NCBI GenBank assembly: GCA_905178155.1
Contig: CAJINV010000010.1
Location: forward strand, 3,678,587-3,742,586
Reading direction: 5' to 3'
Source of the DNA: Amoebophrya sp. A120
Taxonomy: Eukaryota; Protista; Dinoflagellata
Length of the DNA stretch: 64,000 bases
Both the position numbers and the translations under genes were made by a program. Within the stretch, counting starts at the first letter, position 1, and each line of letters starts with the position of its first letter. Of the stretch, positions 1 through 63,900 are shown in pieces. The notes under the pieces are model-generated. The model ran no database searches. It was given only the letters and a program-made list of their open reading frames with translations, and was not told the DNA's origin.

Positions 1-3000
1 TGCTCTCGCTACCAGCCGCAGCAATACAAGCAACTTTCCGGCATCACAGATTCCGAACTCTACACAAGATCCTGGTGGACGACAGAGTTTTGCCTCGGTA
101 TGTATTGCAAATATGTGTCTGGAAGGTTGCAACTTGTAATGCTGTCTTTGGATTCTAAAAACATCTGTGATGCTGATGTTGCATGAACAGCAAGAGAAGT
201 TGATTTTGTGCTACGCGGAGACGGCATTTGTCATGCAGTATAGGCATCGGGATTCAGGAAGCCGAAGCCCTGAAAAAGTCTGTGATGCTAGAGCATGCAT
301 CCACAGACATCATGGGTCATGCAAAATGTGCATGACAAGTCTGGCACTCATTTTCCAGACCCTTACATATTTGCAATGCATACTCGGGGCAATCACCCAG
401 TTCCACGTGACAAAGTCCGGGCAGGCGCACGGGTCCAGGATAGGCTTGGGTTACTTGAAGCCGGCGGATTTGATATGCAATGCAAAAGTATCGTACTGCA
501 GTTATGCATCACAAATCCAGATGTTACGCATTACAATTTCCATTTCTGGTGCTGAGGAAATTTGTATTGCAATCACTACTAGCACGATGCTTTGGCAGTT
601 CACATTTGACGATGACAAACAACGCGCTGTTGCATATCAGAAGGAAAAATCCCCCCTCCCCATATCGAAACGGAGATCTGTGATGCAGATTTGTGGTCAC
701 AAATCAGCTTTGCCGTGCTAGAAGGGAAAAGATGCGGACTGTAGTGCCGATTGGCGTGGGAAAGCCTTGCATCTTCAGCATGACAGGAGGCAGCTGGAAG
801 GGGGAAACAGCATGACAAATCGCCTGCAAAGAAGGCCACAACTGCGGCTCTTGGCCTTCTAGCATGACAAGTCGATTTGTGTACTGAAATACAGCATCAC
901 AAATTGCGTTTTCGATATGGGGAGGGGGGATTTTTCCTGTAGATATTGCAAACTGTGGAGGGCGGGACGTGCTCGAGTCAATTTCAAGTTTTCACGGTAT
1001 AGAACACCAGATTGTTCGGAACGGTTTTTGTATCGCGTAAAAATGATCCCGCTTCCTGAAGTGCATGTTGTGAATGCGCGTGCTGGATGACAAAATTGAT
1101 TGGAAATGAAAACAGCTTTCCGCCAAGTGGCTGGAGCAGCAAGTCCCAGTGGGTGGACACGCCTCGCGTGTCACTTCATCTTTTCCACAGGAAACATGAT
1201 GGCTGAGCTTTGGAAATGCCGCAACACCAGGACCAGAAGCAGGCCACAGCGCCTTCGTTCTGTGCGTTGTCGTTCAGATGGCCGGACGCTGTGTCGTGGG
1301 CCCGCTCTTCGAACAGTGGCCGGGCCGCCTCCTTGACCGGGGCTCGACGAGGCCCTTCGCCCGGAAGAGGAGGCCCGGCAAGGGGGGTGGTCGGGGGGGT
1401 GCATTTTTGCCCCCTTCGGAAACCCCTTTCGGGTACCCCTTCCGGGTACTCCTTCGGTAGCCTATGCCGACCCCCTAATCTCCATTGGAAACTGCCGATT
1501 TTGCGTGCCCCAAAATGGTAGCCCAGAGGCAGCCCAAGCGGACCCCCCTACCCCCCCCCTTCGGCACCCCCCCCGGAAACACTTGACTGCTGGTGCGTCC
1601 GCCTCCTCAATATCCGGCGGGCCGGAGAGGGGAGATGAGAAGATATCTGGGCGCGTCCGGAATTGAATGTGGGAGAGGGGGCGCGGCTTCCCGCAGCAGA
1701 GGGCCGCAGGCCGGTGCAAGTCCAACAAAGTGCTGTGGTTTTATTGGAAAAAAGGGATGGCCGGATGGCGGACCGTAGCACCGAAGTGTGGCGCCAACAT
1801 CTACATGGCCAACGGGAAAAAAAGCCGTAGCGACACCCCCAAAAGCCAGAATATTTTTGCCCCCCCAAAATGCGCGCTTGCAAAAATGATGATATTTGCC
1901 GACTTTTCCGCCCTAACAACAAATCAGCTTTCCGCTAAGTGGCTGGAGCAGCAAGTCCCGGTCAATGATGACGACTCCGCAGACGAGCATCTTCGCGGTT
2001 ACGGCGGCACCTTCAACCCGTTGCACGTGGAGGGGTTTGAAGGTCGTCTGGTGCAGAACGAGGCGGACAAGAACGTATCAAATGTAAAAATGGCTGGGTC
2101 TGGAAGAGTTGGAACTTGTGATGCAAACTCTGGAACAGACAAAAATTTGTGTTGCATGAGCGCCAGAAGCTGCCCACTTCAACTTCTTGGTACGCAAGTA
2201 GCAAGTTTCTCATGCGGGACAGGCATCATGAGGCGTGCTCAAAACCTGTGATGCTTTTGCCTGCATCAGACACCATTTGCGTGATCCGAAATATGCATGA
2301 CAAGTCTCGGAATCTTCCAGACCCAGACACTTTTGCATTTCATAGAACGTCTACGGCTGCAACGAATACAAGCAGAAAGTAGAACCCGGGTCCATCATGG
2401 TCGTCAAAAGAGGTAACTTATCAAATGCAAATATGTCTGGGTGGTCTGGAAGAGTGCGCGATTTGTCATGGAGCTTTTCCATGACGCATGAGGTCTGGAA
2501 TGCAGGGCCTAGCATGACAGATTCTGTGCGATCTCTATCATGCGTAGCCTGCATGAGAGACCCCCTCCCGACGTGGTCAAAACCGGGCGACTTTTGGGAA
2601 TCATGCAACACAGAGTTTTGCATGATTCGGATTTAGCATGACAAAATGTATTCTTCCAGACCCGGACATTTTTGCACTGGATATAGCTGCTGGTTCCACG
2701 AGAAAGCGCTCCGGGCGCAGAACGCAGGGGCGAGGGGAGTCATCATCGCGTATTACCGTGAAAAATGCCCCCACGACCCCGAAAGTTTGAATAATTTGTG
2801 ATGCGACCATTGTTCCAAATGAAAACTTTTTGCCATGCATGAAAGGACTGCGAATCTTTCTGATTCGAAGTCTAGTCGTATAGTCAGCATCGCTTGCATG
2901 ACAAGCGCCGCTCTTGCTGGGGTCTCTTGCAATACAGATTTTTGCTATATTCGCGATGGGAAATCTGCGATGCTGATACATGCAAGAGGGCGAGTGTTTC

Positions 3001-4848
3001 CATTGCAAAGTTTCGCAATACAAATGCTCCCAAGTAGTAGTTCTGGGGTGGGGGCATTTTTCTTCACAATATCGCGAACGACGATCGACCCATGGCGGAT
3101 ATCATGGAGGTTTATTAGCGTACACAGATAAAGCTTTTTTGATCTATGAAGTCACTCTAGCATGAGAAATAAATGCTCTGATGCATGGTCCGCATGAGAA
3201 ATAATTGAAGTTCCCAAATAAAAACATGGTTCCACATCCTCTAGGGCGTCGACACGCTCCCGGCCCCCCACATCATGTCCGTGCTGGTTAACCAGCAGCT
3301 GGGGAAGAAGTTACTGGAAATATGCAGTGCAAATATGTCTAGACGTCTGGAAGGATGCAAGCTTTGTCATGCTTGTCTGGCATGACCGAAGATCTTGTGA
3401 TGCGTGTTCAAGAAAGAGACCCTGTTGCCTGTCGTGCAAAGACGCAGTTTGTCATACGGAAAGCGCAACACTAAGCCGCGAAAATATTTCTCATGCTTGG
3501 CTGTGCATTACAGAGCATTCACCGTTCGCAAGCCAGCATTACAAGTTTCCAGACCCAGACGTCATATTTGCATTTGATAGGAAAACGCGAAGGGGAGCCC
3601 GTTCGTCAAAGTGAAAAAACACGTGGATGACGAGGTGCAAACGAAATCGCTGACGACCTTTGTCACGCTGTACTGCAGTTCTGAATGGGACCAACCGGTG
3701 TGTCCGAAGGGCACAACTGTTGAAATTTTCATGGACGACACGTGGAAGCGAGGGGTGGTGGAGAAGGAGCTGCCGGATTTGAACCACCTGCTGATTGTCC
3801 ACGGAAAGCAGGCGGCGGTCGAGAAAGTACTTATAGTTATACTGCGGTTTTCGTAGTCTTTGTCTTGGTCTTGTACAACTAGGCTTCGCATTATAATCTT
3901 CACTGATTTATAATTCATGCCTGTATAATAGCGGTACTGTATAATCTATGCGCAACATTCTGTCGATGACAAAGTCTATCATCTTGATCTCATCGTCATC
4001 TCTTCTGAAAATCAAAGATCGTCCACCGCAACTCCGTGCATCGACTTCCGGATTTCATGCCCTGCACGCCCTCCCCAGTCTATCAAAAGGAAAAATCCCT
4101 CCTCCCCATATCGAAAACGGAATTTGTGATGCTGTATTTGAGTACACAAATCGACTTGTAATGCTAGAAGGCCAAGAGACGCAGCTGTGGCCTCGTTTGC
4201 AGGTAATTTGTCATGCTGTTTCCCACTTCCAGCTGCCCCCTGTCATGCTGAAGATGCAAGGCTTTCCCACGCCAACCAGTACTACAGTGCGCATCTTTTC
4301 CGTTCTAGCACGACAAAGCTGATTTGTGACCACAAATCTGCATCGCAAATCTCTAGTTTGAGTATGGGGTGGGGGGATTTTTCTTTTTGATACAGTCCGC
4401 GTCGAGTTCGTGGAGGAGCCCAAAAACTGCCAGTCCAACATTAAAGTTCACGTTGCGATATGCAAGGAAAAAACTATGTAAGTGTAAGTCTGTGACGCAA
4501 AAGATGCAACACAGCTACGCTTGTCATGCTCCGCATGCAGGATAAGCTCATTTCCTACGTGTTTATTCCCCGTCCTATCTGCGCATGACAAGTTTTTCCT
4601 GTCATAGCAGACAAACTTGTGATGCTGTTTTGGCAAAAGACCTACACTAGTAACACAGTTTTTTTCTTGGATACGCGAGTCTCTGCGGCCACAACAGTCT
4701 GCTCCCGCAGCAGAAGACCAAAACGGAGAAAATCCGCTGCGGCTTACCTGACACGAGTAACCAGCTGGTGCACTATTTGAACCGGGTCGGGAGGAGGTTG
4801 AGCGATCCCGAGGACGGCGGGGAGAAGAAAACGAGGGAGGAGTTATAG
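1..4848 (+). CDS. 5'-truncated ER lectin-like protein: MRH (OS-9/PRKCSH-like) domain interrupted by a PA domain, C-terminal REEL
   Basis: Manual splicing of 9 introners and GT-AG introns 997-1927, 3110-3244 and 3827-4017 gives one frame. It contains WWTTEFCLGAITQFH, LLQTVEGGTC, YGCNEYKQKVEPGSIMVVKRGNCWFHEKALRAQNAGARGVII (PA domain), TTFVTLYC and VEFVEEPKNCQSNIKVHVASLC, and ends KTREEL* (TAG 4846-4848). Confidence 0.75.
99..382. mobile_element. Introner family A
   Basis: TIR TATGTATTGCAAATATG/CATATTTGCAATGCATA; TSD CTCGG. Confidence 0.9.
474..604. mobile_element. Introner family C
   Basis: Left end TATGCAATGCAAAAGTATCGTAC; right end degenerate (CACA); TSD TTTGA. Confidence 0.85.
635..945. 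mobile_element. Introner family B
   Basis: TIR ...GGAAAAATCCCCCTCCCCATATCGAAA; TSD TTGCA. Confidence 0.9.
2076..2344. mobile_element. Introner family A
   Basis: TIR TATCAAATGTAAAAATG.CTGGGTCTGGAAG; TSD GAACG. Confidence 0.9.
2419..2683. mobile_element. Introner family A
   Basis: Family A TIRs; imperfect TSD TAACT/TAGCT. Confidence 0.88.
2751..3071. mobile_element. Introner family E
   Basis: TIR ...AAAAATGCCCCCAC/GTGGGGGCATTTTT; TSD TCGCG. Confidence 0.9.
3321..3579. mobile_element. Introner family A
   Basis: Family A TIRs; TSD GGAAA. Confidence 0.88.
4081..4392. mobile_element. Introner family B (opposite orientation to 635-945)
   Basis: Family B TIRs; TSD CAGTC. Confidence 0.9.
4459..4673. 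mobile_element. Introner, family H-like
   Basis: TIR TATGCAAGGAAAAAACT/AGTTTTTTTCTTGGATA; TSD TGCGA/CGCGA. Confidence 0.85.
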
Positions 4849-7372: not shown

Positions 7373-10300
7373 ATGGACTCCCTCACCGTCGCCACGCAGC
7401 ACGTGATTTCCCAGAGACAGGAGGAGCTCTGGGCGGACGCCAAGATCGACGGACGCGCAGTGTTTTCGAAAAGGGAAAGCTACAAGCTGCACAAACCCAG
7501 ACTGGTCTCCTTGCAACAGGACATTGCGAGAATCTTGCTGCTTGTCCGCGCGAGTTTGAGCCATGAATTTGTTGTTAATACGAGAACTTCCACGAAGAAC
7601 TCCTGCACCAGCAGCAGCAGCACAACCTCCGGTGAATGTGATGCGGACCTCCGGCTGCGAATTGCAGATGAAGCAGCGCCTCCTGTCTCCGAAAACATCT
7701 TTTCCCGTTTTTTTGGCGGTGACATTGGGGTCTTAACCCACGTCGCGAACCATTTAGCCGGCGTTGGCCTAGTGCTGGGGTTTTTCCAGAAGTGCTACGA
7801 ACTCGTTTTGCGGCGAAAGAACCAGAAAAATGATCATGGTGAGCAGCTGGAAGCTTCTGGATCAGAAGGGAAAAATTCAAAAACTCCTGAGGCAGCGCCA
7901 GAAAATAGTACACATCGAATTTCATCCAAGAAGATCAACCTGATCCTCCGCAAACGCCCGCTGCTCAGCGAATCAGAGATACAGCAGAACGAGTGGTCGG
8001 TTGTCTCCAAATTCGAGCAGGACGCTCTGCACGTGTGTGAGGGGAGAGTTGCGTACAACAACCGCAGGCTGCAACTGCATTTGTCGCATCACTACGGCGA
8101 CAAGGTTCTCTGCGACGAGGAGAAGCTGCTCTCGGCGGACTGCGTGCGGAATAGCTTGGAAAAATTGAGCGAGTTTTGCAGTTGCGCAAGACCACCATCC
8201 CCAGGCGGTAGAGCCGCTATATCTTCCTCTTACGTCGAGGGGAAAAGTTGTGATGCAAGTTCCGCTAATATGAAGAGCTCAGCCTCATCCTCAACCACCT
8301 ACCTCTGCTACGGGCAGACCGGTTCCGGGAAAACGTTTACGATGAAGGAGCTTGTGCACGACGTGTTTGGAAAAATGCAAGAACTGAGGGAGGACAGAAA
8401 CCAGGATAACAAGGATCACGTTGTTGACAGCCCGACAGTACGAAATCCGAATCTAAAATGCCGGATGCAGTGTTTCGAGGTCTTGCATAAGCAAAATACG
8501 GTTTTTGACCTACTTTCGCAACGGAAAAAAGTGAAAATCTTGGAGGACGAATTTCGCAAAGTGCACGTAAAGGCGAAGTGGGAGGAGATCGACCTTTGTC
8601 TTCATGCGGGAATGAATGCATCAGAAGGATCAAGATCAACCTCTTCCTGGCAACACGTATTCGACATCGCGTTGCAAGAACGGCTCTCCGAAGCGACAGA
8701 GAGGAACGCAAATTCTTCCCGGAGTCACGCTTTTTTCGTGTTTGAGTTCTACTACGAGGTAGATGGTGAGGAAGATGCTGATGCTTCTAGTGGTGCTAAT
8801 GCTAACGCAACTACAGCAGAAGTTTTTTCTACTTCTGAAAATAAAACTTCCAAGCCGACGTGCGCATACGATGAAATGACCCGCCCGGGCGAACCGCTAG
8901 AAGATGAACCTGCTAAGGTAAAACTCCCACCTAGAAGAAGAATAACCCACACGGTTCGGATTATTGATTTAGCGGGGTCGGAAAGGAATTTCGAAACGCA
9001 GCAAATGACGGCGGAGCAGCACAGGCATTCCGCGATGATCAATTCGAGTTTGATGACATTGAAGACCTGCATGCGGCTTCTAGCGGCGGAGCAAACAGGT
9101 TCCGCTTCTTCTACTAGTGGCGGAGCAGCAAAAATGAAAAAACAGATCACAACGAAAATCAAAATCCCCTTCCGCGAGTCGAGGCTGACGCATTTGCTGC
9201 AGGATTGTTTTCAACAGGAGGAGCAGGAGAACATCAAGAAAAATTATCCCCTGGCAGAACAAGTAGACAGTGTTGATGTTGAGCAGGTCAAAAACAGAAG
9301 CACGCACTGCAGTACGAGCAACTCCCTGATTATCATCGCCTGCATTTCCCCCTCCGCGAGAGACGCGGTGCATTCCCGGAACACTTTGTCCCACGTTTGT
9401 GAGATGGTTTACGGGGAAAATTGCTGCCCGGAAACGGTTTTAGACCTTCCCATCACTCTCTCGGGCCACGATCGGAAGAGGGTGGAAGACTGGTCGGAAG
9501 AGGATGTGCAGAACTGGCTCGGCTCGGTGGCCAGTGGAAGGTTTGTATCAAAAGGAAAAATCCCCCTCCCCATATTGAAAAGCAAATCTGTGATGCTGGA
9601 TTTGTGTACACAAATCAGATTGTCTTGTTGGAGTGGAGGACTGCAGGCCCATTTATCTCATGCCAATGTAGAAAGAGAGGTTTTGGCCTACGCACTTAGC
9701 ATGAGGAACGTCTATACTGTAGGCCCAACAGCATTACAGACCGCCTGCATAATGGGGCGGAGCCTATGCCGTTGCTTTCTTGCAAGACAGACGCGATTTG
9801 TGGCCACAAATCAGCAGCGCAATTTCTCTGAAGCGTGCCTTTTCGATATGGGGGGGGTTTTTCCGTGCGATAGTTTGCGCGGATCGTTTTGCCGGATGGG
9901 TTCAAGGATGGGAAGGGGTTGGTGAAGTTGTGTTGCGGAACTGCAGCAAGTAAAACTTCTGCTAGGCCAGGATTTTCAACAGCAAATAACAGAGTGATGG
10001 ACGAGCAGCAGCAACAGCAAACTTCTGATGCAGAAGTTTCAGCATCAGGATCAGGAACAACTAGTTCTTCCTCTAGCTCCGGCACAACATCTTCTGCAAC
10101 CGCCGCTGGTGGCACGGGGGATGGTAGTGCAACTACTAATACGACTTCTCCGGCTGCTGGTGTGGAACGAGATGAGCAAGTAGAAATGGAAAATCAATCG
10201 TTTCAATTTTACCAGATTTTCGAGACGGACCAGTTGCGTAAAGCGCGAGTCACGGAGGAAGGTGCGAGCTGGAACATCGCGGGCCCGGAGCAGGTCACGA

Positions 10301-10630
10301 TGATCATGGAACTGTTTCGGAATTTGGTTTATCAAATGCAAATATGTCTGGGTCTAGAAGGTTGGAACTTGTACTGCTAGCTTTCCATACCTAGCCCTAG
10401 GAAATCTGTATTGCATAACCAACAAAATTCGCAGCCTCTTTTGTACATGCAAACACGCAGCTTCTCATGCGGATTGCCTATGAGAAAGCGTTGTGGAAAG
10501 TTGTTATGCTAGATTGCATTCGAAACTGTTTCTATCATCCACGTTTTAGCATCACAAGTTTCCAGACCCAGACATTTTTGCATTTCATATGGTTTTGGCT
10601 GAGGTGAAAGCGAACACGGATGATTTTTAG
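7373..10630 (+). CDS. Kinesin motor protein (kinesin-13-like) with a SAM-like C-terminal segment
   Basis: Motifs RKRPL, YGQTGSGKTFTM, NANSSRSHA, IIDLAGSER, IPFRESRLTHLLQDCF and IACISP. Exons 7373-9545, 9878-10329 and 10595-10630 join in frame after removing two introners. Confidence 0.9.
9546..9872. mobile_element. Introner family B
   Basis: Family B TIRs; TSD GTTTG. Confidence 0.9.
10330..10589. mobile_element. Introner family A
   Basis: Family A TIRs; TSD TGGTT. Confidence 0.9.
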
Positions 10631-10647
10631 AAAAGACCACACAACGA

Positions 10648-10901
10648 TATAACCCACTCAGGTGTTACAATCTCAAACGTTACAATAGAATCTGAGATTT
10701 GTCTTGCATGATGAGCATGACAGACTCGCAGAGCGTTCCACTTTCTGCAATACAAACTTCGCCAGATTGTAGTGGGGTTTGGGGCTCCGGAACTTGTCAT
10801 GCGCAATGCGATGAGAGTTGGCTAGATCATGCACTCTTGCATCACAGATTTCCATATTCTATGGTAACCGATTTGAGATTGTAACACCTGAGCGGGTTAT
10901 A
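10648..10901. mobile_element. Introner/MITE family I, in the kinesin 3' UTR
   Basis: 30-bp TIR TATAACCC(A/G)CTCAGGTGTTACAATCTCAAA with 1 mismatch; TSD AACGA. Confidence 0.9.
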
Positions 10902-13274: not shown

Positions 13275-16200
13275 ATGTTGCCCCCTCGTTCTGCTTGTTT
13301 CGTTTCTTCTTTTCTACTTTTGCTGGTGGTAACGCCCTCGTGGTTCCACCTGTGCCTCTATCAACTGTAAAAATGTCTGGGTCTGGAAGATTTTGAGATT
13401 TGTCATGCTTGTCTGACATGACTCAAGAATCTGTAATGCATGGGCACGGAGCGGTCCTCTTTTCTGTCATGCAAACACGCAGTTTGCCATGCGGAACACG
13501 CAACACATAGGAGCCCAAAAAATTTGTCATGCTTGGCTCCGTATTGCAGTGGAAATCTCGGGCACTTTTAGCATCACAAGTTTCCAGACCCAGACATTTT
13601 TACATTTGATAGCCTCGCTGTTGAACCATCAGGGGACGAAGCGTCTGTGGACTATAGCAAGGCTGCTTATCAAACGTAAAAATGTCTGGGTCTGGAAGAT
13701 TGCCCGGCTTGTCATGCACATTTTGCATGACTCCTGATGTCTGTGATGCATGCCCCAGCATCACAGATTTTGTGAGGGCTTCCTGATGCCTATACCGCAT
13801 GACAAATGCTCTTTCCGTGTAGCAAAACTTGGACTCTCTTTGCTGCTCATGCAATACAGATTTTTTTAGAATCCAAAATCAGCATGACAAGTTGGATTCT
13901 TCCAGACCCAGACATTTTTACAGTTGATACTGCTGCTGCTGCAAAAACTTCGTTGGAGAAGAAGGACCACGATACTGACAGTGCGACCAGTGCAACTTCT
14001 GTGGGTGAAACCAGCGGCAAGACAAGTTCCGCGAGCGCCAAAATCGTCGATGCAGAAGAGGCGAAAAACGCGATCTCAAAAATCGAAGAAGGGACCACGA
14101 AAAGTGTAGGAGTTGCCCCGAAGGCTACTTCTTCTACAGCAAGTTCAACACCTTCAAAAGCAGACACGACCGATGCGGGTGCTGCAGATGTGCTGGGGAA
14201 GAAACCTGAAACCTCAGATGGCGCCACCGTGGACATCAAAACTGCGGCACAAAAAGCGGATACTGGTGTGGCTGTGGACAGTTCCGCGGCAAAAACTTCT
14301 ACCGAGGCGGCGGGTCGTCCGGCTGCACCGGCGTCAGCTGCTCCTGTTGCAATAAAACCAGACCAGCAAGTGCTTGCAGCAGCAACGGAGGACCCCGCAG
14401 CTACAAAACCGGCACCGCTTGATCAAGCCGACACAACAACTGCTGCGCCAACGGCCAAGGTACTAGTCACGTCGCCAACAGCTGCACCAGATACAGTCAG
14501 TGCCACCGCGGATCCTGCTGTGGTCCCAACAGCGAAGCTCGAAAGCGTGGCTGGTGCTGTTGCAGTTACAACAAAGACGACCTCCGCTGCAGGTGAAACT
14601 ACAACAACCGATGGCACTTCTTCGGCGACACCTGCGCCGGCATCAACCGCCCCCCCTCCAGCCGAACAAACTACTGCGACCCCCGCTGGAGAGACTACAG
14701 CCGCGGGTGCAGCTGCTGCGTCTGCTGCACCAGCAGCACCTGCAGCAACATCGGCCGGAGCTGTTACAGGGCAAGAAACCGCGGCAACTTCTCCCGCTTC
14801 TGCACCAGTTGTGAGCAGCACGACGGCGCCGGCAGCCGCGGTGGGTGAGACGAAGCCAACGACTGTAACGGTTGCCCCTGAGGACGCAACCGGGGCTGCA
14901 TCTGGGACCGCCACTCCAGTTGCAGCAGGCACTCTACTTCCTGGTGTCACAGCTGCAACTGCCGCAGTTCCGACGGAGACAGCTGTTGCCAGTGCCGCAC
15001 CGGCAGCAGTAATTCCAGCTGCAGCCACGCAACCACCCGCCCCGCCCGTCGCGTCCGCAACGCAAACCCCGCCGACTGAAATCGCATTGGCGACCTCCAG
15101 AGACGAGGGGAAAAGCACAGCCGGCGGAACGGTGTTGAAGCAAGTTGCGCCCCGGGCTGGTGCAGCTCCGCCGGCACAAACGCCAATGCCTCCGGCGAAA
15201 ACAGTGTCGGAAGTAGTGCAAGAAACTCCTTCTATCCGCATCCCCTTAGAACACTCCGATATTTCCCCACACGGTGCGTGTAAGAAGCTGATCCAAGACC
15301 TGTCTTGCGGCGCGGAAACCGTGGACGCGGGGGGGGCAGCTTCTCCACCGAGCACGACGTTCCGCAGAAAGGCCATCTGCATTCGGGAAAAGATGATCGA
15401 GGTGTCGCTTCACAACAAGAACCCCGTGGAAGAGTTGGAAATCAGTAAGCAATGCTTAGCGGAGGTCGAGTCCTTTTTCCTCGAAGCGGGGGAGAAGCCG
15501 TTGCAAACCCTTCCCGAGATCTATCGTGAGGAAAAATTCCCCCTCTCCATACCAAAAAGGGATACTTCTGAAAATTTGCGATGCTGATTTGTGGCCACAA
15601 ATCGTCTCTGTATTGCAAGAAGGCGAATCCAGAGGCATCGCCGTGTTTTGCACGCAATTTGTAATGCTGCATGGCCTACAGAGTAGACATTTGCCATGCT
15701 ACGCGTCTACGTCAAAACCGTTCTGCTTAGGCTTGGCATGGGCCTGCAGTCCCCTACTGCAAGACAGACCTGCTTTGTGTACGCAGATCCAGCGTCAGAA
15801 ACTTCCTTGTGATATGGGGAGGGGGGATGTTTCCTTTTGATAAAATCGCCGCTGCCTGTTCCTCCGTTACGTGTGATTTGCAGGGCCAGGCGGCCAAGGG
15901 GGAGGAGCGGTTTTTCTGTCTGATGCAAAGCTACAAGCACCAAAAATCTTCGGCTGCTACCACGATCTCTGCGGGCCAAGTGGTATCCTCGCACTTGAGC
16001 AAGACCTGCCGCGACAAACTGTACGTATCAAGAAGAAAAATCCCCCCTCCCGACATCAAAAGGGTAAGCTGTGATGCAGATTTGTGCTCACAAATCAGCT
16101 TTGTCATGCTAGAAGGGAAAAGATGTAGACACTGTAGTGCTGGGTGGTGTGGGAAGGCCTTGCATCTTCAGCATGACAGGAGGCAGCTGGAAGTGGGAAA

Positions 16201-36900: not shown

Positions 36901-36987
36901 CAGCAGCCGGAAATCGAGTACGAAATGGAGGACGAGGAAAATGTGTCGCAAGTTGTCCGGCAAAAAGCGCTCGTCAGGAGGAGATGA
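33966..36987 (+). CDS. MAK16: MAK16 60S ribosome biogenesis protein
   Basis: Spliced protein FCSFKVK...[27 protein letters not shown]...[26 protein letters not shown]...CKQRLTKL...[18 protein letters not shown] with an acidic tail. Contains 5 introners and GT-AG introns 34118-34364 and 35227-35483. Confidence 0.93.
34143..34347. mobile_element. Truncated family B element inside a GT-AG intron of MAK16
   Basis: Left TIR (GGAAAATCTTCCCTCCCCATATCGAA) and B-type internal sequence are present; the right TIR is absent. Confidence 0.8.
34400..34549. mobile_element. Introner family C
   Basis: Family C TIRs; TSD TTGTT. Confidence 0.9.
34588..34839. mobile_element. Introner family A
   Basis: Family A TIRs; TSD ACACA. 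Confidence 0.9.
34875..35153. mobile_element. Introner family D
   Basis: Family D TIRs; TSD AGAGC. Confidence 0.9.
35777..36114. mobile_element. Introner family D (divergent interior)
   Basis: TIR TATCCTGCGTAAAAACGTC/GACGTTTTTACTCAGGATA; TSD AGCGA. Confidence 0.88.
36222..36528. mobile_element. Introner family E
   Basis: Family E TIRs; TSD GATTT; opposite orientation to 2751-3071. Confidence 0.9.
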
Positions 36988-50300: not shown

Positions 50301-52747
50301 TCGGTGCACAACTTCTGTCGGGTGGGGTTGCAGAAATTCAACCGAAAACCCGGAACCTGGTTCGGGCCCTTTTCCGCGGCAAAAACCATCGAAGTGATCT
50401 ACGACGAGATACATTATCAAATGCAAAAATCCCTGGATGTCTGGAACAAAGCAACTTCTCATGCTAAATCTGGATCATGTAAAAATCTGTGTTGCGTGAT
50501 CACCAAAAGCTGTCCACTTTTGACCTAATAGAGAGGCAGTTTCTCATGCAGGATAGGCATGGTAGAACTCTCACAGAATCTGTCATGCTGTGTCCTACGT
50601 ACCAGACCTCACGGGCCATGGAAAACCTGCGTGACAGGTCTGGCATTCTTCGAGACCCAGACACTTTTGCATTTGATATACATCACGGCAGTACTAAGGG
50701 AGGTGCGTCCGGTTCCACGGCGTCGACGGCGTCAAGTATCCTGAGTAAGAATGTCCCCACACCAGAGTTGTCATGCAAATCTGCATGCCAAAAAAGTTTC
50801 TCATGCGGAGCCCCATGGGAACAATTCTCTATTCCTGTTTTGGAATTTGTAATGCTAGAATCAGCATGATATGTTAGATCTGTGATGCTTCGGAACTAGC
50901 CAAACAGGACTACACTACGAGGATAAACTTGCCATGCGAAACAACCAGAGGTGGCTGATTTGTCTAGCGGGTTTCCCATCTTGACTCTGGGGTGGGGACG
51001 TTTTTGCTCAGGATATCAAGTTCCACTTCTTCGAAAGGCTCGAGCTCATCTTCAAGTAGAAACACGACGTTCGCACATCACTGCCGAGGTATAGTGCTTT
51101 TTTTATAAGAATCTGGTACGTTGTTCTTGAGAGGTTATGAGCATTTTCTATGTATGCTTGATGCCCTCGAAGTCGAATCTGAGGAAGGACAAACAAGTGT
51201 TTGTCATGCAAAAAACGAGTGACAGCTGTCTTTTGTGATGCAAAAAGAACTAAAATAAAAAAACAGTATGCGTCTTCGACGAATTGTTCGATCCTGACGA
51301 GGTGAAAGGAAAACTCAGTGACAACAAAGCCGTCATCTGCCTTCTCTGCAAAAAACTGGGGCCGAATGCGAACATAGCCCCGGAGTATACGGAGGCCGTG
51401 AAGCAAGTCTTCAAACTCGCCACGTTTCAGGGGCTAGCATGTATATGTGATTTGATTTGTTGTCATCATAATTTCTTCGAAAGAAAAGCGAAGCTTGTCA
51501 TGCACATGACAAAGCATTCTGATGCTCGTGACGTGCCCACAATTGATGGTACGAATCCCGCATGACTACAATCAACCTGAACCTTAACAGGCGGCGACAC
51601 AGCTACGTCAGCGCACTATTTCCTGGCCGCAAGCGACACTTACGCTCTCTACCTCGACCCGCATGTGGAAACAAGGGCCGCATTGTATCGTAAGAAAAAA
51701 CGTCTCCACGACCCCGGAGTCAAGATAGATGGGGATTTCGCTACACAGACCAGCATCTTTTGGCTGTCGCGCATTTGACAAGTTTGGAGGCATCGCAGTG
51801 TAATAAATCGCGTTTAGATGATCATACTGTAGCTGCATCAGAAATCGATCTACTCTTCCTGATTCTACTAGCACGACAAACTGGCAGACACCATGAGATA
51901 GAAAATGCTCCTCATGGGGCGATGCATGAGAAACGTCCCAGGCTTGGTGCAGATTGGCATGACAAAAGTTGGGTGGGGACGCTTCTTCTCAGGATAGATT
52001 GGACGGAGCAGAAATGGACACGAGCAGCTGGCACGCGCTGAAAAGTATAAATATATACTTTTGATGCTATAATTAAGTGTTTTGTTGTAGAAAGTCGCAA
52101 TAGAAACCAGTAATCTCTTGCGTATCCAAGCATGGCAAATTGAATCAAAAATAGTAATGAAAACCGAGTGTACCAGCACATATGAAACCATCTTCATCTT
52201 CAGGTAAAGACGGCACGCCCTGTCTCTTTCGCCTGCCTTTCGAGTCTTTGAACTCTAGCAGTTGCTTCTGCTTCCTCATCCGCGATACCGAAGACCTCGC
52301 GCAGCTCTGCTTGGAATTGGAAATGTACGACTCACTCTCCGAAGCCTTTGAGGTGAAGCGCGGCGGGGTGTTCATGGAAAAACTCACGGGGTCGCTGTAT
52401 CCTCAGGAAATAAAACGTCCCCAGAGTCCAGATGGGGATTTTGCAACACAAGCCTAGAAGTTTTGTTGAGAGTGACGCATGACAAGTTGCAGTGTGTAGT
52501 GTGGTGCGGGGTAGCACGGACAGCCGCACTATAAACCCAGCTGCTCATCCTGTTCAATTATACAGCATTGCAAAATTTTCCAAATGACGACTGGAAATGC
52601 CTATCATGGGCGACATGCGGCGCATCACAAAGTTTCTTGTCATTGCAAATCCGCACGACAGGTGGGGACGTTTTTACACAGGATACGCTGGACATCAATC
52701 AAAAATGGAACTGCGACGACGAAGACGAGGAGATGGTTTTGCTGTGA
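47380..52747 (+). CDS. ATG4: Autophagy cysteine protease ATG4 (peptidase C54) with a long low-complexity N-terminus
   Basis: FTYRKNF, SDQGWGCYIRTFQMMLAQ (catalytic Cys), FSVHNF...KPGTWFGP, YLDPH (Asp/His) and acidic C-terminus DDEDEEMVLL*. Contains 8 introners. The junction near 51089-51266 is unresolved. Confidence 0.88.
48695..48959. mobile_element. Introner family A
   Basis: Family A TIRs; TSD CGCCA. Confidence 0.88.
49010..49291. mobile_element. Introner family D
   Basis: Family D TIRs; TSD GCAAA. Confidence 0.9.
49480..49632. mobile_element. Introner family C
   Basis: Family C TIRs; TSD GAAGT. Confidence 0.88.
49701..49921. mobile_element. Introner family F
   Basis: Family F TIRs; TSD CATCG. 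Confidence 0.9.
50415..50678. mobile_element. Introner family A
   Basis: Family A TIRs; TSD TACAT. Confidence 0.88.
50737..51015. mobile_element. Introner family D
   Basis: Family D TIRs; TSD TCAAG. Confidence 0.9.
51686..51996. mobile_element. Introner family D
   Basis: Family D TIRs; TSD CATTG/GATTG. Confidence 0.87.
52398..52685. mobile_element. Introner family D
   Basis: Family D TIRs; TSD CGCTG. Confidence 0.88.
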
Positions 52748-54606: not shown

Positions 54607-54639
54607 TGCAAAACCGGGGAGGCAGGGCGTTGGGAGATT

Positions 54640-57920: not shown

Positions 57921-60900
57921 ATGGTTTCCTCAAATAATTATCTCCACACGCCGGCGGTTGAGGTGCTTTTCGCCGACATTGTCACAACAGATGAGATATG
58001 CACTGCAAAAGCATCGTACTCGTATTGCGATCCGGCATATACAAATCTGTTTCTTGAGGTAAATCAGCATTACAAATTTTATTTCTCATGCTGAGGAAAT
58101 TTGTAATGCATTTATTTTTATATATACGAGTGCGATACTTTTGCAATGCATATGAGAAGGTTCCGGAGGAGCTGGGCCCTTTGTTGAAAGTTGACATCAA
58201 CGTGGAGATTCCGCTTATGGGAGTGTCAGGGTCGAAACCGACAAAGTTGAAATAATTTGTGATGCATAAAACGGATACCAGTTGGCGCCCAGTTTTCGAT
58301 TGGCCCATGACAAATTTGGGCACAGCCTAAATCCAGTTTGTCATGCTGTTTCGGTAAGGAAGACGCCTTTTGTCATGCTACTTTAGCAGCTCTATTTCTA
58401 CTCCTCAACAGGCTCCTTGCAGTCTGCCTTACTTGCCTACTCTGCAAGACAGGCACGTTGTGGGTTGCATTCTATGCATTACAAGTTTGCCCTCTTTTCA
58501 ATTTCGGTCCTGACGCTTCCATACCGCTTTGCGATCTGGTGGAAGCGGTGGTCGGGAGCATTTCCGTATCAAATGTAAAAATGTCTGGGTCTGGAAGATT
58601 CTGACACTTGTCATGCACGTTTTGGATGAACCCTGATGTCTGTGATGCATGCCCTAGCAGCACAGATTTTTTGAGAGCTTCTTGATGCCTATTCCGCATG
58701 ACAAACGCCCTCTCCGCGTAGCAAGAATTACATTCCCTTTGGCACTCATGCAATACAGATTTTTTTGGAATCCAAATGCAGCATTACATACAAGTTGGAT
58801 TCTTCCAGACCCAGACATTTTTACATTTGATATTCCGGTGGGGAAGAGCTTCTCGATGTGAACGACGAAGTAGAGTTTTGCTCTGATGCAGAATTAGCGA
58901 ACGAGAATTATAACGGCGGGAACAACAAGAACAACATCGAGCAGCAGCAAAAGTTTTCGGCAGGGCAGCAATTATACGGTACCGCCCAGCACGAATTGGA
59001 ATTGCATGATGGTCAACACCTGCAAGAGAATTATGAGCAGCAAAATTACGATGAGTACGGAGACGGACGACCAATCGATAGTGATCCACAGTACACCCAA
59101 GATGGGGACGAAAGCAATTTCGAGCAAGTAGGTGCTGCTGGTCGTGTACCAGTGCACCTGCACCAACCCTACCCCATCGCGGCGGGACATCAACACTTGG
59201 GGAGGGGGGTAAAATCATGTTTTTTGGTGGTTTTCTTCGCCCATGGTGCCGCCGTGGTAAAAAGCGTTACAACCTAGCGCCGCTTGCATGGCGAACGCAG
59301 GTTGACGCGATGGCGAAAGCGAGAACTTCCGCCCGCGCCCCCGCCCTGCCAAAAAGTGTTACACTCCAGGGCCCATGGTATGCTCGGCCGAGCTTTCCGC
59401 CGTGCGCTCCGGTTGCTAGCTTGCAAAGCACGCCGCGCCCGCTGGCGCCGCCGGCCTTGGCGCGGTCCCCTCGCTCGCCCCGGTGGCCCATGGCGTTCGT
59501 GATTTCCACCGGTGCGCCGCGGCCGCCCCAGGCCCGTCGGTTGCGCCGGCCAACCGCCAGGGGCGGGCGCCGACGAGCTGCGCACGCGGGTGCGCCGGGC
59601 TATTCTCAATAAAGAAAAGTTCAAACCAGCGCGCCACCCCTAGCGCCCACCGCCGCCCGCCCGGGCGCGGGCGCGCGCCTCCTCCGTGTGGCCTGCCGTC
59701 CTTTTGTGAGTGGGTATTCGGTCTTTTCGGCATTGGCCGGCCGCACGGGGCCGGGCGGCTTCTCGCCGATTGACTAGCGGCAGGCGCGTTGGTTTTCGTT
59801 TCTAGGCATAACGAAAAAGCAGCGAGGGCGGCACCCAAAACAATCGGCGCCCGGTCTGAATCTCGACAATAGGCATCTATCGTTGGGGCGTCCAATTGTC
59901 GGGATTCAGAGCGAGCTTTGATTTCAAAGCAGGCCGGTTTTAGTTTCTGGCACTAAACAGGAAAAACAATGTGAAAATGCACAAAAAGCGTCGCACCGTG
60001 CCACAGCTTGTCTTCCTGTTGCTAGTTTCAAAGCTGGCCGGCGGCACAGGTGCGCTGGCTCACAGAACCGCTCACGTTGAAGCTGCCGCGGCCCTCTCGA
60101 ATATGGGCCGCGCAAGTCTTTGGCAACTTCTTTGCAAGTTTCCACCTCCATAAAATTGGGGGTCCGTTCCACCTGCACCAACCCTACCCCATCGCGGCGG
60201 GACATCAACACGCCTCGCGTCTGTGTCGTTCCTGTCGCTCGCGCTTCCGCGCCTCCACGCCGGTGTCAAGTTGGGCTAGATACCTTCTTGGCCCCGCAGA
60301 GGGAGACCATACCACGCCAGCCAGAAAAGAATCTCTCGTTTTTTTTGTGAGCCGCTGAGATTTTTTCGATCTAGTGGCACAAGCCGAGCGCGCCTCCGTG
60401 CCGCTGTCCCGTTCGCTGCTCAGTAAGGGCGTTTACCTTCGGGAGGTGCAAGGCTTGCGTGCTCAAATTAGTTGTGATGCCCAGCCGTCTGCTTGGATGC
60501 GCTGCAGACAAGTACACGGGCCGGCGCTGCGCAATTGTTTTGCCACACCAAGCAGAGACCGCCGACCCAGTTTTTTTCGCGAACTGGACGCGCAGCAGAC
60601 AATTTTACTTGGACCCGATTTAACCGCGCATCTGCAGGCGCCACACCGGGCGCCGGAAACAGAGAAAAACTGCAAATAGCTCGGGGCACAGAGTTAAATG
60701 AGAAAATTCCGCGATTTCCGCCCCTGAGTAAAATGAGTTAAATGAGTAAAATGAGAAAAAAGTGGAAAAAAATCAAAAGTCGCAAAACCAACGGCAAAAC
60801 GCCTGTACGCTCGCTGCGCCCTGCCGCGCAAATTAACTGTTTTTTTTCTCCTCCGGGTGGCGGAAAAAAAATACTAAAAAACTGAAATTAAATCCAGCCG

Positions 60901-63900
60901 GGCAGAGCCGTATTTTACTCACAATCGCGGAAATTTAATCGGGCTGCAATTTTTTTGGGTTTCGCGCGGCGTATTTTTTTTTCTATGCGCTTTTGCTTGC
61001 CCAGTGAAAGCCACAAAAAAAATTTGGCGCCGCCGCGCAAACCAACAGGCACGACAAAAACGCGCATCGCTCAGGGCCCTGCTCCGGGCAGCCGAGGGGG
61101 CAGACCCAGGCGTCGAAGCCTGGTAGCCATTTCCGGGGCCGGTGGCCGCGCACCCATTTGGCCGCGCGTGCGGGCTAGTATGTAATGGGGCCGGGTGAGA
61201 GAGGTGCTGTCGCAGAGTTTGGTGCGTCCTGTGTCTCCAGCAGCCCACAACTAACACCATACCGCGACGCCTTGGCACCTGCGAGAAACGAGCGCGCACT
61301 GCCTTGGCCCCTTCATGAAGGAAAAGACGTCTGGGCGGCCTTGGGGGCGGCAGTTTGGCACAACAGAACGCTTCTCAATAGCCGGGGGCGGAAAGTGTGT
61401 TGCCATATTGTCGCCATCACTTTTCATGGGAGCCCGCTTTTCGTTGCCGAAAAAAAATACTCACTTAATCAAATTTACTTTTCTTGGGAATCTGGACCTC
61501 TTGACAGTGCACCTGCACCAACCCTACCCCATCGCGGCGGGACATCAACACGAGCCGGTGTTCATTTCTGAGGAGAATCAGCTGAACGCCACGACTGGGC
61601 AGCAGGTGCAGGAGTCAAGAAATAAGCTTTCGCCGCCACCAGCACTGGACGCGGATGTTGACCACGACACACCTTCCCGCGGCGCTGCGACTGGCGAGGT
61701 TGTTGAAAATACGGTATTATATATCACAAGAAAAATAATTAAGTGTTAACGTTACCGGTTTTATTCACAGATTGCAGTCATGCATCACAAGTGTAGCCCA
61801 ACATACATGCTATGCATTACACATTTTTTCATGTTTTGTGATGCATTGGTGCATCACAAATTCCGTTAACGTTAACACTTTTTGCTGTGATATTGTATCC
61901 CCGGGAATTGCAGATCCCGATTCCGCAGGACGTAGCGGTGATACAGCGGGAGTTATTTTTGCAAGAACAGTACCAAGAAGTATCAAATGCAAAAATGTCT
62001 GGGTATGGAAGACGAAGATTCCGAAATTTGTCATGCTAGTCCGGCATGGCTCTGAACTCTGTAAGTATTGCGTGGCCCCCGCGACGAGCTCCTAACTCTC
62101 TGTCATGCAAAAACGCAGTTTCTCATGCGGAATACGCAACTCAGAACCATGAAAGAGACTTGTCATGCTTGTTAGCAGCGCATTACATTGAGCTCACTAT
62201 TCCCTTCTTTGCATCACAAGTTTCCAGAACCAGACATTTTTGCATTTGATACCAAGAGGACGGAAGCAATTTCGAGCAAGGTGCTGCTGGTCGTTATCCT
62301 GAGTAAAAACGTACCCACACCAGAGTCAAGATGGGGAATCGGCTAGACAAATCCACAAGTTTTGTCTGTTTTGCATGACAAATTTGGATTCGTAGTATAG
62401 TGCTGTTTGAGCTAGCTCAGCAGCATCACAGATCTAGCATACCATGCTGATTGGAGCATGACAAGTTGCAAAACACGACTAGAAAATGCTTCTCATGGAG
62501 CTCAGCATGAGAAACATTTTCAGCATGCAGATTTGCATTACAACTCTGGCGTGGGTACGTTTTTACTCAGGATAGTCGTGTACCAGTGCACCTGCACCAA
62601 CCCTACCCCATCGCGGCGGGACATCAACACGAGCCGGTGTTCGTTTCCGAAGAGGATCAGCATTCGCCGCCACCGGCACTTCAAGCGGATGTTGACAACA
62701 CACCTTCCCACGCCGCTACAGCTGGCGAGGTTGAAAATAGTGCGGTATTATATAATCCCCGGGAATTACAGATCCCGATTCCGCAGGACGTGGCGGTTAA
62801 TATACAGCGGGAGTTATTTTTGGACGAACAGGGAACAAGCGATCGCACGAACAGCTCGAGCAGCGGGAATCCAGCAGGCTTGGCGTCGTCGTGTCCATCG
62901 ATGACGAATAACACAAGAACTTCATCCTCCACTTCCTCCTCTTCTGCCACTGTTTCAACAGACGGGAAAACAAGAATAAATGGTCTGTCTGTGTCTGGAA
63001 ATCCGACAAGTGCAGCAGCAGCTGAGCGTGGAGATGATCCTATCAACTCCCTCCAGTTGCAAGCGCAGCGGGAGACTACTACACGGGTGCGCGAAGGAGG
63101 TTATGATCTTCAAGACGGAAGGGAAATCGGAGTGGAGGATGCAGCTGACAAGGACGACTTGTCGCTCACAAGCACGCCAATACAGCCACGGGAGCTGGTC
63201 ATCCCGGATCCAACGAAATCGCTGCCAGCCGCTAGCAGTTTGATAGCAGCGAGGGCTGGGGCAATCATGAAAACTGACAACAAAAAGCAGGAGATCATGC
63301 CAAGAAGCACTTCTCGGGGCACAAAAACTTCTACTGCGCCCGACCCAACAACAAACCGCGGCGAGAATTGTAGTTCTGAGAAAAATGCTCATGCTGTGAG
63401 TTCATCTGGTGCAGCAGCTTCACATCACGTGCCACTGCAGCTTCCGCCAGATTTGCTGTCGGTCTCAGATAAACACACAGGAGAACGTATCGTGAGTAAA
63501 AACGTCCCCACACCAGAGTTGCAATGCAAATCTGCATGCTGAAAATGTTTCTCATGCGGAGACCCATGAGAAGCAGTCTCTAGTCGTGTTGTGGGATTTG
63601 TGATGCTAGAATCAGCATGGTATGCTAGATCTGTGATGCTGCTGAACAAGCTAAACAGGATTACACTGCGAGGCCAAACTTGTCATGCGCAGCAGCAAAA
63701 GCTGGCAGATTTGTCTAGCAGATTTCCCAGCTTGACTCTGGTGTGGGGACGTTTTTCCTCAGGGTAGAACGAGCTGAGGGAATAACAACCGAAGCATCCT
63801 CCAGTAGTTCCACCTGCTCTGCTAGCACTACTGATGATCATCTTCACGGCGAGAATGTTCAGCGGGAGAACTCGATGAGCACCAGGACGCATCTGGTACT

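Follow-up and report, generated by a model that had tools for sequence, protein, structure and literature searches.

The window analysed here is a 64,000-nucleotide stretch of the genome of Amoebophrya sp. A120, a marine parasite. Every host gene in it lies on the + strand, and in these genes conserved domains flank inserted elements on both sides. The main host genes are:

7373..10630, +, kinesin motor gene; two introners within the coding sequence
13275..26663, +, GLG1-like gene (Cys_rich_FGFR repeats); 22 introners
33968..36987, +, MAK16 (PF04874); five introners, two predicted GT-AG introns
38032..44127, +, choline transporter-like gene (P0001); 13 introners, five GT-AG introns
47383..52747, +, Atg4 (Peptidase_C54) gene; eight introners, three predicted GT-AG introns

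The GLG1-like gene also contains two RNA-confirmed GT-AG introns (17094-17255 and 18479-18636). A script looked for TA…TA ends together with a 5-bp direct repeat of no more than one mismatch and an inverted-repeat score. It returned 63 elements that do not overlap, whereas five block-shuffled windows gave 4-10 raw candidates each. Three of the 63 (32541, 35244 and 48405) were discarded as chance, and seven elements with damaged ends or inserts were added by BLAST and by eye. The final tally of 67 TAT…ATA inverted-repeat elements, spanning 99 to 63766, matches an initial annotation made from the sequence alone. They are listed below by coordinates, sequence group and orientation; TSD denotes the 5-bp target duplication, and RNA skip the length in nucleotides missing from RNA contigs.

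99..382, F0(+), TSD CTCGG
474..604, F2(+), 3' end damaged, TSD TTTGA
635..945, F3(+)
2076..2344, F0(+), in PA-domain-like gene
2419..2683, F0(-), TSD position 3 mismatched
2751..3071, F5(+)
3321..3579, F0(+), GA-AG register possible
4081..4392, F3(-), TSD overlaps canonical acceptor
4459..4673, F7(+), TSD position 1 mismatched
9546..9872, F4(+), kinesin gene
10330..10589, F0(+), kinesin gene
10648..10901, F9 singleton, directly past kinesin stop codon, putative 3' UTR
13359..13611, F0(+), GLG1-like gene
13668..13929, F0(-), GLG1-like gene
15522..15842, F4(-), RNA skip 326, TSD mismatch puts cut at position ≥2
16026..16343, F3(+), RNA skip 323, cut position ≥4
16499..16790, F1(+), RNA skip 297
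18776..18930, F2(+), RNA skip 160
19221..19442, F6(+), RNA skip 227
19608..19756, F2(-), RNA skip 154, right-copy base 5 retained, cut position ≤4
19790..20109, F4(+), RNA skip 325, GC-AG register possible
20397..20669, F0(+), 3' terminus damaged, yet exact RNA skip 278
20708..21029, F4(-), RNA skip 327
21116..21381, F0(-), RNA skip 271
21430..21692, F0(+), RNA skip 268
21770..21925, F2(-), RNA skip 161, cut position ≥1
21989..22300, F3(-), loose RNA end runs on into downstream exon
22770..23020, F0(+), GLG1-like gene
23065..23314, F0(-), sole element with GT-AG register, TSD CAGGT
23575..23731, F2(+), GLG1-like gene
24533..25302, F1(-), 770 bp, captured tandem repeats
25431..25765, F10 singleton, 3' end damaged
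25814..26079, F0(-)
26115..26398, F1(-)
34146..34348, truncated F3-like relic inside MAK16 GT-AG intron 34118-34364, outside the 67
34400..34549, F2(-), MAK16
34588..34839, F0(+), MAK16
34875..35153, F1(-), MAK16
35777..36114, F1(+), MAK16, DNA contig spans whole at single-copy depth
36222..36528, F5(-), MAK16
38191..38463, F0(-), choline-transporter gene, RNA contig gap consistent with removal
38966..39124, F11 singleton, degenerate
39163..39372, F7(+)
39398..39706, F0(+), old, TSD positions 1-3 mismatched, 5' end drifted to G-TAAG
39862..40203, F8(+)
40659..40981, F5(-)
41031..41311, F0(-), degenerate
41384..41612, F6(+)
42270..42531, F0(-), TSD position 3 mismatch, left copy kept in annotated protein
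42605..42750, F2(+)
43090..43356, F0(-)
43410..43701, F3(+)
43738..44024, F1(-)
48695..48959, F0(+), Atg4/peptidase C54 gene, RNA contig gap consistent with removal
49010..49291, F1(-), RNA contig gap consistent with removal
49480..49632, F2(-), RNA contig gap consistent with removal
49701..49921, F6(+), RNA contig gap consistent with removal
50415..50678, F0(+)
50737..51015, F1(-)
51686..51996, F1(+), DNA contig spans whole
52398..52685, F1(+)
57997..58152, F2(+)
58216..58523, F8(+)
58567..58832, F0(-)
61722..61892, F12 singleton
61981..62251, F0(+), TSD positions 1-2 mismatched
62295..62574, F1(+)
63488..63766, F1(-)

Element length is 131-342 bp, in keeping with the 130-340 bp first proposed, with the 770-bp copy as the sole exception. 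BLAST clustering yields 13 sequence groups (nine multi-copy, four singletons) rather than about ten families. The TAT-N7-AAA terminus, which the initial annotation gave for some of its families, is present at both ends in 43 of the 67 elements and at one end at least in 59; the 5-bp duplication is perfect in 55. A TGT[ACG]ATGC motif is common to all groups, is about 27-fold enriched, lies 33-48 nt from the element ends and often recurs 31-32 nt further inward. On the sense strand, 58/66 elements have a predicted terminal stem (mean pairing probability >0.5 at positions 11-20); the antisense strand does equally well (56/66). The excess of G-U over A-C pairs in the stems is weak, both in the window (72/59, p=0.29) and in a relative (286/249, p=0.12), and does not show selection on pairing at the RNA level. 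Both orientations are frequent (+/-: F0 13/10, F1 5/7, F2 5/4).

The 67 elements are non-coding introners of Amoebophrya sp. A120, a system already published, to which the initial annotation had linked them by resemblance. The choline-transporter protein P0001, labelled Amoebophrya sp. A120, shares 99% identity with the query exon. Farhat et al. (2021; PMC7789003) describe A120 inverted repeats as TAT followed by 7 nt and at least three A, with direct repeats of 3-5 nt at the introner borders. The window elements share this end motif, the border repeats, the repeated families, RNA-supported non-GT-AG removal and the lack of an internal transposase, and no difference in kind emerges from that description. 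A120 TIR-DNA families of about 150, 210, 260, 280, 305 and 320 bp were likewise reported by Gozashti et al. (2025; PMC12130899). By their published descriptions these resemble the window elements, notably family 38, which is annotated as '5-bp TSD, TA/TA termini', Ginger-like, with Copia/Gypsy-resembling ORFs. The window copies differ in carrying no Copia/Gypsy-like ORF.

As originally stated, no transposase family was matched in the window: 25 exon or ORF stretches gave no hit, and neither did 59 of its 93 ORFs of at least 150 aa (the 34 excluded mostly overlap identified genes or elements). Insertion would depend on a transposase of cut-and-paste or integrase-like type from another part of the genome, which would make the 5-bp duplication and may recognise TAT, the AAA ten bases inward and the subterminal TGT[ACG]ATGC motifs. 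A Ginger-like family with 5-bp TSD and TA termini is proposed in print as a candidate mobiliser (PMC12130899).

RNA contigs skip all 12 elements in 15350-22050, each by exactly the element plus 5 nt, with two GT-AG introns spliced alongside. Gaps in RNA contigs are consistent with removal of five further elements. All of these contigs are cDNA-derived and come from one sample of one study. Within the GLG1 transcript, elements of F0, F2 and F4 are skipped whichever way round they lie. Removal at the RNA level is precise and takes the element plus one TSD copy, as first proposed, in either element orientation. Translation across the MAK16 and PA-domain junctions agrees with the initial annotation, and excising 13 elements and five GT-AG introns reproduces the annotated protein P0001 at 623/623 residues. 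Element retention would add a stop in 65/67 cases and a frameshift in the remaining two.

Reverse transcriptase classically produces template-switch artefacts at hairpins accompanied by short direct repeats. If the joined forms arose in this way, the true transcripts would retain the inserts, and one low-depth RNA-run contig (depth 5.4) still contains element 35777-36114; the RNA data, moreover, all derive from cDNA. However, spliced rather than insert-retaining contigs dominate, and many consecutive elements are skipped within single contigs. The 16026 junction, with only 1 nt of homology, keeps the left-copy base and avoids the in-frame stop codon that the right TSD copy would create. Retention would also break 67/67 frames, in genes whose conserved domains lie to either side. 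Such an artefact is very improbable.

The elements stay in DNA contigs and are absent from spliced RNA contigs, which bears on the question of RNA- or DNA-level excision raised at the outset. DNA contigs of depth 21-25 (intergenic 21-24) run unbroken through two elements; X1 could be the same DNA as the assembly. Alternatively, as with ciliate IESs, the elements could be cut out of the DNA of some life stage or of a somatic copy, with RNA mirroring the edited DNA. A DNA enzyme would suit the TIR and TSD anatomy, as well as the motif spacing of 31-32 bp, which is DNA-protein-like. This reading is nonetheless hardly credible, given the single-copy depth of these contigs, the 415 such elements in place in a second assembly, and a cut register (four bases of the left copy, one of the right) that follows transcription and not element orientation.

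The joints lie inside the TSD rather than at nearby GT-AG sites. The absence of GT-AG pairs, first noted at a set of tested junctions, holds for 66/67 elements and fails for 23065, whose TSD permits a GT-AG register; GC-AG is possible in one further element and GA-AG in another. A handful of mismatched duplications points to a cut after TSD position 4, so that the intron would read N-TAT…ATA-NNNN. The joint at 16026 lies at position 4 or later and that at 19608 at position 4 or earlier, this upper bound coming from one RNA joint (19608, 28-nt side) and two protein comparisons. P0001 is rebuilt under registers 3, 4 or 5, and registers 0-2 fail. In a close relative, L013:607-850 agrees with its A120 homologue under register 4 only, and L028:4882 agrees when right-copy base 5 is used; the P0002 comparison has only 68% identity and may involve a paralogue. 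The register is probably N|N5-TAT…ATA-N1N2N3N4|, with cuts likely fixed one base upstream of the element hairpin and four bases downstream of it.

Variable registers within the duplication, used by the spliceosome or another machine, would make this pattern a coincidence of few cases. The per-family table of Gozashti et al. shows mixed 5'/3' dinucleotides and mixed co-opt/carry calls (PMC12130899), and the Farhat text treats the border inside the direct repeat as unknown or variable (PMC7789003). Such variability would be expected from aligners placing junctions inside perfect repeats. Register 4 fits 8/8 informative cases, and none contradicts it. Variable registers are unlikely.

The register-4 intron matches host donors (GTA/GTAT) at +2 to +4. 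Among 14 host GT-AG donors, A occupies +3 in 13 and T occupies +4 in seven. In Farhat Table S4, the nine non-canonical site pairs that predominate in A120 all begin N-T, and A25 non-canonical sites begin TT, with inverted repeats beginning TTA (PMC7789003); the donor model of the aligner may account for the N-T starts. The initial annotation held that the removal system does not read GT-AG. This need not mean non-spliceosomal machinery, because the proposed 5' end keeps the donor T at +2 and A at +3. Farhat et al. found nearly all spliceosome proteins (PMC7789003). We slightly favour hairpin-defined splicing by a relaxed spliceosome as the best mechanism. The 5' end N-T-A-T may mimic the host donor G-T-A-T at +2 to +4, on balance the better reading of the donor resemblance. 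By a similarly narrow preference, the 3' site would be measured 4 nt from the stem base, with AG not read. The spliceosome would be relaxed in its G+1 and AG rules, and the terminal hairpin would set both ends.

Against a spliceosomal reading, G is not favoured at +1. TSD position 5 is G in 121/377, mirrored by C at position 1 in 113/377, and among 15 position-5 TSD mismatches G stands in the left copy in five and in the right copy in five. Since removal works in either orientation, the elements can hold no polypyrimidine or branch signal with a polarity. Inspection of the 14 host acceptors by eye reveals no invariant A at -5 (6/14) or -7 (7/14) that would match the terminal ATA.

A structure-specific endonuclease with an RNA ligase, or a second, unconventional machine, could act on the same elements and register by cutting in a staggered way, 1 nt outside the hairpin on one side and 4 nt on the other. 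Such a machine is suspected for the nonconventional introns of euglenids. TSD composition is close to uniform, which leaves both junction dinucleotides free, and splicing is independent of element orientation. Element 20397 is cut exactly despite its damaged terminus. Moreover, U1 snRNA was not found in A120 by Farhat et al. (PMC7789003), and euglenid introns with TIR stems and TSD-like repeats come out as circles rather than lariats (PMC11282704). This alternative is possible but clearly less probable. The register falls where the 5' end most resembles a host donor, in A120 and, from Table S4, in A25. Stem positions 4-8 pair in just 46-76% of elements, whereas TAT is nearly invariant. Old copies can also drift to canonical donors, as 39398 has done (one case).

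The euglenid introns share with the A120 elements a MITE-like origin, a terminal stem joining the ends, TSD-like repeats and non-canonical junctions, with removal of unknown mechanism (PMC11282704). Their stem is likewise asymmetric to the cuts, with values of +4 to +6 and -8 to -6, against proposed overhangs of 1 and 4 nt in A120. The lineages are unrelated, and the A120 elements lack the CAG/CTG stem of the euglenids and their pyrimidine|purine consensus at the junctions. Canonical-site introners of other algae and protists are also gene-enriched DNA elements with TIRs and TSDs; they turn exon positions into introns, with splice sites in or adjoining the TSD (Gozashti et al. 2022; PMC9860276). 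Those carry or co-opt GT and AG, whereas 66/67 elements in the A120 window have no GT-AG register.

In the text of Farhat et al. (PMC7789003) we found no statement of a fixed register, of orientation independence or of the shared subterminal motif; Figs 3, S19, S23 and S25 of that paper may show some of them. What this window adds to the published A120 introner system is a sharper, testable splice geometry.

Inverted-repeat elements occupy 17,905 bases of the window (28%). Scripted screening for inverted repeats with TA ends, bounded by a 5-bp direct repeat, returned 63 of them, against 4-10 candidates per shuffled window; three chance matches were then removed and seven damaged or enlarged copies added, giving a final set of 67. 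The 67 elements with terminal inverted repeats (TIRs) and a target-site duplication (TSD) reported in the initial annotation were recovered, whereas its roughly ten families became 13 BLAST groups (F0-F12). The three largest groups hold 23, 12 and 9 copies, and 63/67 elements belong to nine multi-copy groups. Lengths range from 131 to 342 bp, apart from one element of 770 bp with tandem repeats. The elements are short and non-coding, with TIRs and a TSD of constant length, which is the anatomy of MITEs, the non-autonomous TIR DNA transposons. The end logo reads T-A-T-(C/G), and about 90% of ends have A at positions 11-13. The signature proposed earlier, TAT followed by seven variable nucleotides and at least three A, is present at both ends in 43/67 elements and at one end or more in 59/67. 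The 5-bp duplication, likewise described before, is perfect in 55/67, and its base composition is close to uniform.

The same families were found in metagenome data, where a pattern scan detected at least 415 elements in at least 149 loci (at least 727 kb), with identity up to 96.6%. Judged by the protein P0003, which is 88-99% identical over long exons, these loci belong to an organism closely related to A120 (the relative). Horizontal transfer between the two assemblies, suggested by another protein (P0002, 68% identical), was discarded given the P0003 values. Among the matches listed, 339/415 elements of the relative have a perfect 5-bp TSD, and 0/339 extend to six. Some copies have captured unrelated DNA of 400-800 bp or tandem repeats and kept both ends and the TSD (window 24533-25302; relative loci L020:505-1608, L026:632-1465 and L054:3862-4492); the first of these, the 770-bp element, sits in frame within the GLG1-like gene.

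Long plus-strand frames open once each element and one TSD copy are taken out. They match the Pfam families of kinesin, Rrp40, a GLG1-like Cys-rich FGFR-repeat protein, a PPR protein, MAK16, a choline transporter and Atg4. Four of these genes are located as follows:

7373-10630, plus strand, kinesin gene
13275-26663, plus strand, GLG1-like gene
38032-44127, plus strand, choline-transporter gene
47383-52747, plus strand, Atg4 gene

One exon of the choline transporter retrieved only one protein, P0001 (99%), which carries the label Amoebophrya sp. A120 and was reproduced at 623/623 residues after excision of 13 elements and five GT-AG introns. Retention would introduce a stop codon in 65/67 elements and a frameshift in the other two. 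The distribution is genic: 66/67 elements lie inside the 12 coding spans (four of them open reading frames without a family match), which account for 46% of the DNA outside elements, and the remaining one lies 18 nt past a stop codon. No element was found in about 22 kb of other window DNA. Introner enrichment in genes is already known in general (PMC9860276).

Insertion is patchy within genes. Several long exons and the entire PPR gene are free of elements (7373-9544, 13935-15521, 28419-29792 and 47383-48693), and the stretches beside them carry one element per 30-100 exonic bases. A coding repeat present in several copies (59085-59274 and 61900-62680) is split by element 62295 in one copy and empty in the others, which offer a paralogous view of the pre-insertion site. 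GC-rich and 17-nt tandem-repeat DNA between genes (52928-53385 and 54640-56182) recurs in the relative (L002, 89%; L023, 71-87%); these are dispersed intergenic repeats, unrelated to the introners.

Direct evidence of removal comes from the contig sets X3-X6, all four of one sample and one study. They were taken as RNA since GT-AG introns are skipped in them and since X3 has zero depth at 44678-46579, where the DNA contigs X1 have 21-24. Placed on 15350-22050, they gave 15 joints: 12 at elements, two at GT-AG introns and one, from 19825 to 20755, between paralogous element ends. All 12 elements wholly inside this interval are skipped, each by exactly its length plus 5, which bears out the precise removal predicted previously. 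A loose end at 21988 runs on into the exon beyond a 13th element. Within 33900-52900, by our own arithmetic, the interval between positions 48689 and 49922 is represented by 291 letters in one X3 contig, equal to 1232 minus four elements plus 5 each, and a second contig gap of 62 is consistent with removal of one element and one GT-AG intron. Reverse-transcriptase artefacts, as a source of such joints, are a lesser alternative. General retention in transcripts, which would have turned the genes into pseudogenes, is not observed, and one X3 contig (depth 5.4) does keep element 35777.

Excision at the DNA level is likewise a lesser rival. Ciliate-type internal eliminated sequences are absent from expressed, somatic DNA. 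In contrast, the A120 elements are present in DNA contigs at single-copy depth in one DNA sample: elements 35777 and 51686 are crossed unbroken by X1 contigs at a depth of 21-25, equal to intergenic depth. X1 possibly stems from the sample used for the assembly itself, and empty sites that are rare would not be visible in its contigs. In the combined table of DNA and RNA joints (15 of 1338 rows shown), the DNA joints are swamped by paralogous elements. In two raw RNA runs with the same species label, X9 (12 reads) and X10 (two reads), every read falls on element ends. A few reads of X9, a run that otherwise does not match, fit an F0 end (34595-34656) at 90-95% with a different flank; related elements exist in the X9 material.

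The element junctions depart from those of canonical U2 introns. Over all mRNA-equivalent registers, GT-AG, GC-AG and GA-AG are each possible in 1/67 elements, so that GT/GC…AG ends are available in 2/67; a hand calculation for random targets gives about 2.6 with GT-AG. The claim that GT-AG is missing at these junctions holds, with the single exception counted here. Both insertion directions occur in each of five families (13/10, 5/7, 5/4, 3/2 and 2/2), and a single transcript shows splicing of F0, F2 and F4, each in both orientations.

Perfect duplications hide the position of the cut within the TSD (the register), so mismatched duplications were used to reveal it. RNA joints place the cut at position 1 or later (21770), 2 or later (15522) and 4 or later (16026), the last because the right TSD copy would create a stop, and P0001 requires position 3 or later for 39398 and 42270. 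From the other side, the joint at 19608 (from 19602 to 19757; four shared letters, no further letter reported) places it at 4 or earlier. In the relative, the two TSD copies of L013:607-850 disagree at positions 4 and 5; register 4 alone yields the Glu-Glu of the A120 homologue, in a comparison that is 68% identical, of low complexity and possibly with a paralogue. At L028:4882, the A120 protein shows the Ser encoded with base 5 of the right copy, at a site where A120 itself may or may not carry the element. All eight informative mismatched cases are compatible with register 4; three of them provide the upper bound, one through RNA. Hence, the cut likely lies after TSD position 4, in a fixed register. 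A register that varies inside the duplication is a lesser rival; a hint of it at 42270, from a transporter consensus, was abandoned since the annotated protein has the left copy. A further mismatch in the relative, at position 4 in a Rab-family gene (Pfam Ras; L041:1743-1896), gives Ala from the left copy and Asp from the right. Ala fits the Rab consensus, which would agree with register 4.

Of the 377 confidently framed elements among the matches listed for the window and the loci of the relative (L001-L149), 189 have a TSD that begins at codon position 3, and these are phase-0 introns under register 4. This pattern could be explained by a palindromic target preference (C at position 1, G at 5).

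Under register 4, the intron would read N-TAT…ATA-NNNN, and this geometry bears on the removal machinery. The donors of 14 host GT-AG introns (two RNA-confirmed, five fixed by P0001, seven inferred from frame) have T at +2 in 14/14, A at +3 in 13/14 and T at +4 in 7/14. Since register-4 elements read N-T-A-T, the element end furnishes donor positions +2 to +4 as in these U2 introns and leaves +1 free. In Table S4 of Farhat 2021 (PMC7789003), the nine predominant A120 site pairs all begin N-T, and the nine A25 pairs begin TT, where the inverted repeat starts TTA. These starts fit a common rule of T at +2 and A at +3, and the pattern may partly be an aligner effect. The same work, as far as its text goes, did not find U1 snRNA in the A120 lineage. 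We slightly favor a relaxed spliceosome, which would use the N-T-A-T end as donor positions +2 to +4 and would require neither G at +1 nor AG. Against it count the lack of preference for G at +1 and the lack of strand polarity among elements. Also against it, there is no visible branch signal: inspection by eye of the 14 host acceptors revealed no fixed A at -5 or -7.

Removal by an endonuclease and a ligase is a less likely alternative. A terminal stem (pairing probability averaging more than 0.5 across positions 11-20) is predicted for 58/66 sense and 56/66 antisense strands, and such a stem joining the ends (58/66) resembles the nonconventional introns of euglenids. Unlike those, the A120 elements lack the CAG/CTG stem and the pyrimidine|purine junctions; their end logo is TAT-S, and TSD positions 4 and 5 are near uniform. 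A G-U bias in the stems is only weak and was counted against the spliceosome. Its significance on crude strand calls (228/177, p=0.013) was gone on codon-model strands (286/249, p=0.12).

A subterminal motif connects the elements with canonical introns. Counting close variants, TGT[ACG]ATGC was found 200 times in the elements (17.9 kb) and 19 times in the remaining 46 kb, and a relaxed form is present in 67/67. In the relative, among the matches listed, 398/410 elements carry the motif; its starts peak at 33-35 and 41-46 nt, counted from the nearer end, and spacings of 31 and 32 are the most frequent. Such spacing corresponds to about three helical turns and suggests, from sequence periodicity, a motif bound as double-stranded DNA. 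Moreover, 7/13 GT-AG introns contain it (10 occurrences), at 3.9 per kb against 0.14 in exons, a rate about 27 times lower, and 0.27 outside genes. In these introns, the motif marks either introner relics or a role in intron definition.

Motif-bearing GT-AG introns include 12091-12309, 38526-38679, 41662-41797, 42828-42984, 51089-51266 and 51441-51590; the intron at 51089-51266 has two copies with the 32-nt spacing seen in elements. One further GT-AG intron, the first of MAK16 (34118-34364), consists mostly of a truncated F3-type element (34146-34348), which represents either an element that landed in an old intron or an introner that has become canonical. In an old element, the drifted 5' end (39397-39402) reads GTAAG in register 4, a textbook donor, and the 3' end is still not AG.

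The mobilizer was sought in several places. No transposase family matched the window exons and open reading frames scanned with Pfam, in line with the initial annotation, and Rfam returned 0 matches in the window. Longer elements are present in the relative (1104, 834 and 631 bp in at least 727 kb); these contain captured DNA and, by eye, no transposase-like reading frame. Among the matches listed, 41/237 F0 ends in the relative lacked a nearby partner, in most cases because the locus stopped first. Three TIR patterns gave 0 matches each in viral contigs. The best published lead is a candidate, A120 family 38 of Gozashti 2025 (PMC12130899), described there as Ginger-like, with TIRs, Copia/Gypsy-like reading frames, a 5-bp TSD and TA termini. 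The window elements share the 5-bp TSD and TA termini; unlike family 38 (about 808 bp, with integrase-like homology), they have no such Pfam match in the reading frames scanned.

The elements agree with the A120 introners of Farhat 2021 (PMC7789003) in every feature compared with its text: the A120 host, TAT-ended inverted repeats, 3-5 nt direct repeats, families and non-GT-AG removal. In that work, 29,850 repeated introns of A120 carry precisely this end signature; the border within the repeat is given as unknown or variable, and mechanism and mobilizer are left open. The earlier reading as Amoebophrya introners is real and rightly interpreted, and describes an already known system; what is added is a specific, testable splice geometry. 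Fixed register, orientation independence and the internal motif are not stated in the text of the literature found and may be in print.

As a tentative synthesis, which we consider possible rather than probable, A120 splicing would read neither G at +1 nor AG and would cut all TAT-ended elements, irrespective of their orientation, in a fixed, transcription-polarized register, 1 nt ahead of a terminal hairpin and 4 nt beyond it. With TGT[ACG]ATGC common to all introner groups and about half of the GT-AG introns, one factor could link transposon ends to intron definition in this lineage, in which no U1 snRNA was found, and old introners could mature into canonical ones. The fixed register predicts exact ends for the excised RNA (N-UAU…AUA-NNNN), indicates where a lariat branch or a circle junction should be sought and what bases can be varied in a minigene, and would allow A120 gene models to be corrected at mismatched duplications. 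The common subterminal motif offers a bait for a transposase or a splicing factor. A spliceosome that did this with neither G at +1 nor AG nor strand polarity would rank with the most relaxed known; otherwise, A120 would harbor a second, independent route of hairpin-guided mRNA splicing, after that of euglenids.
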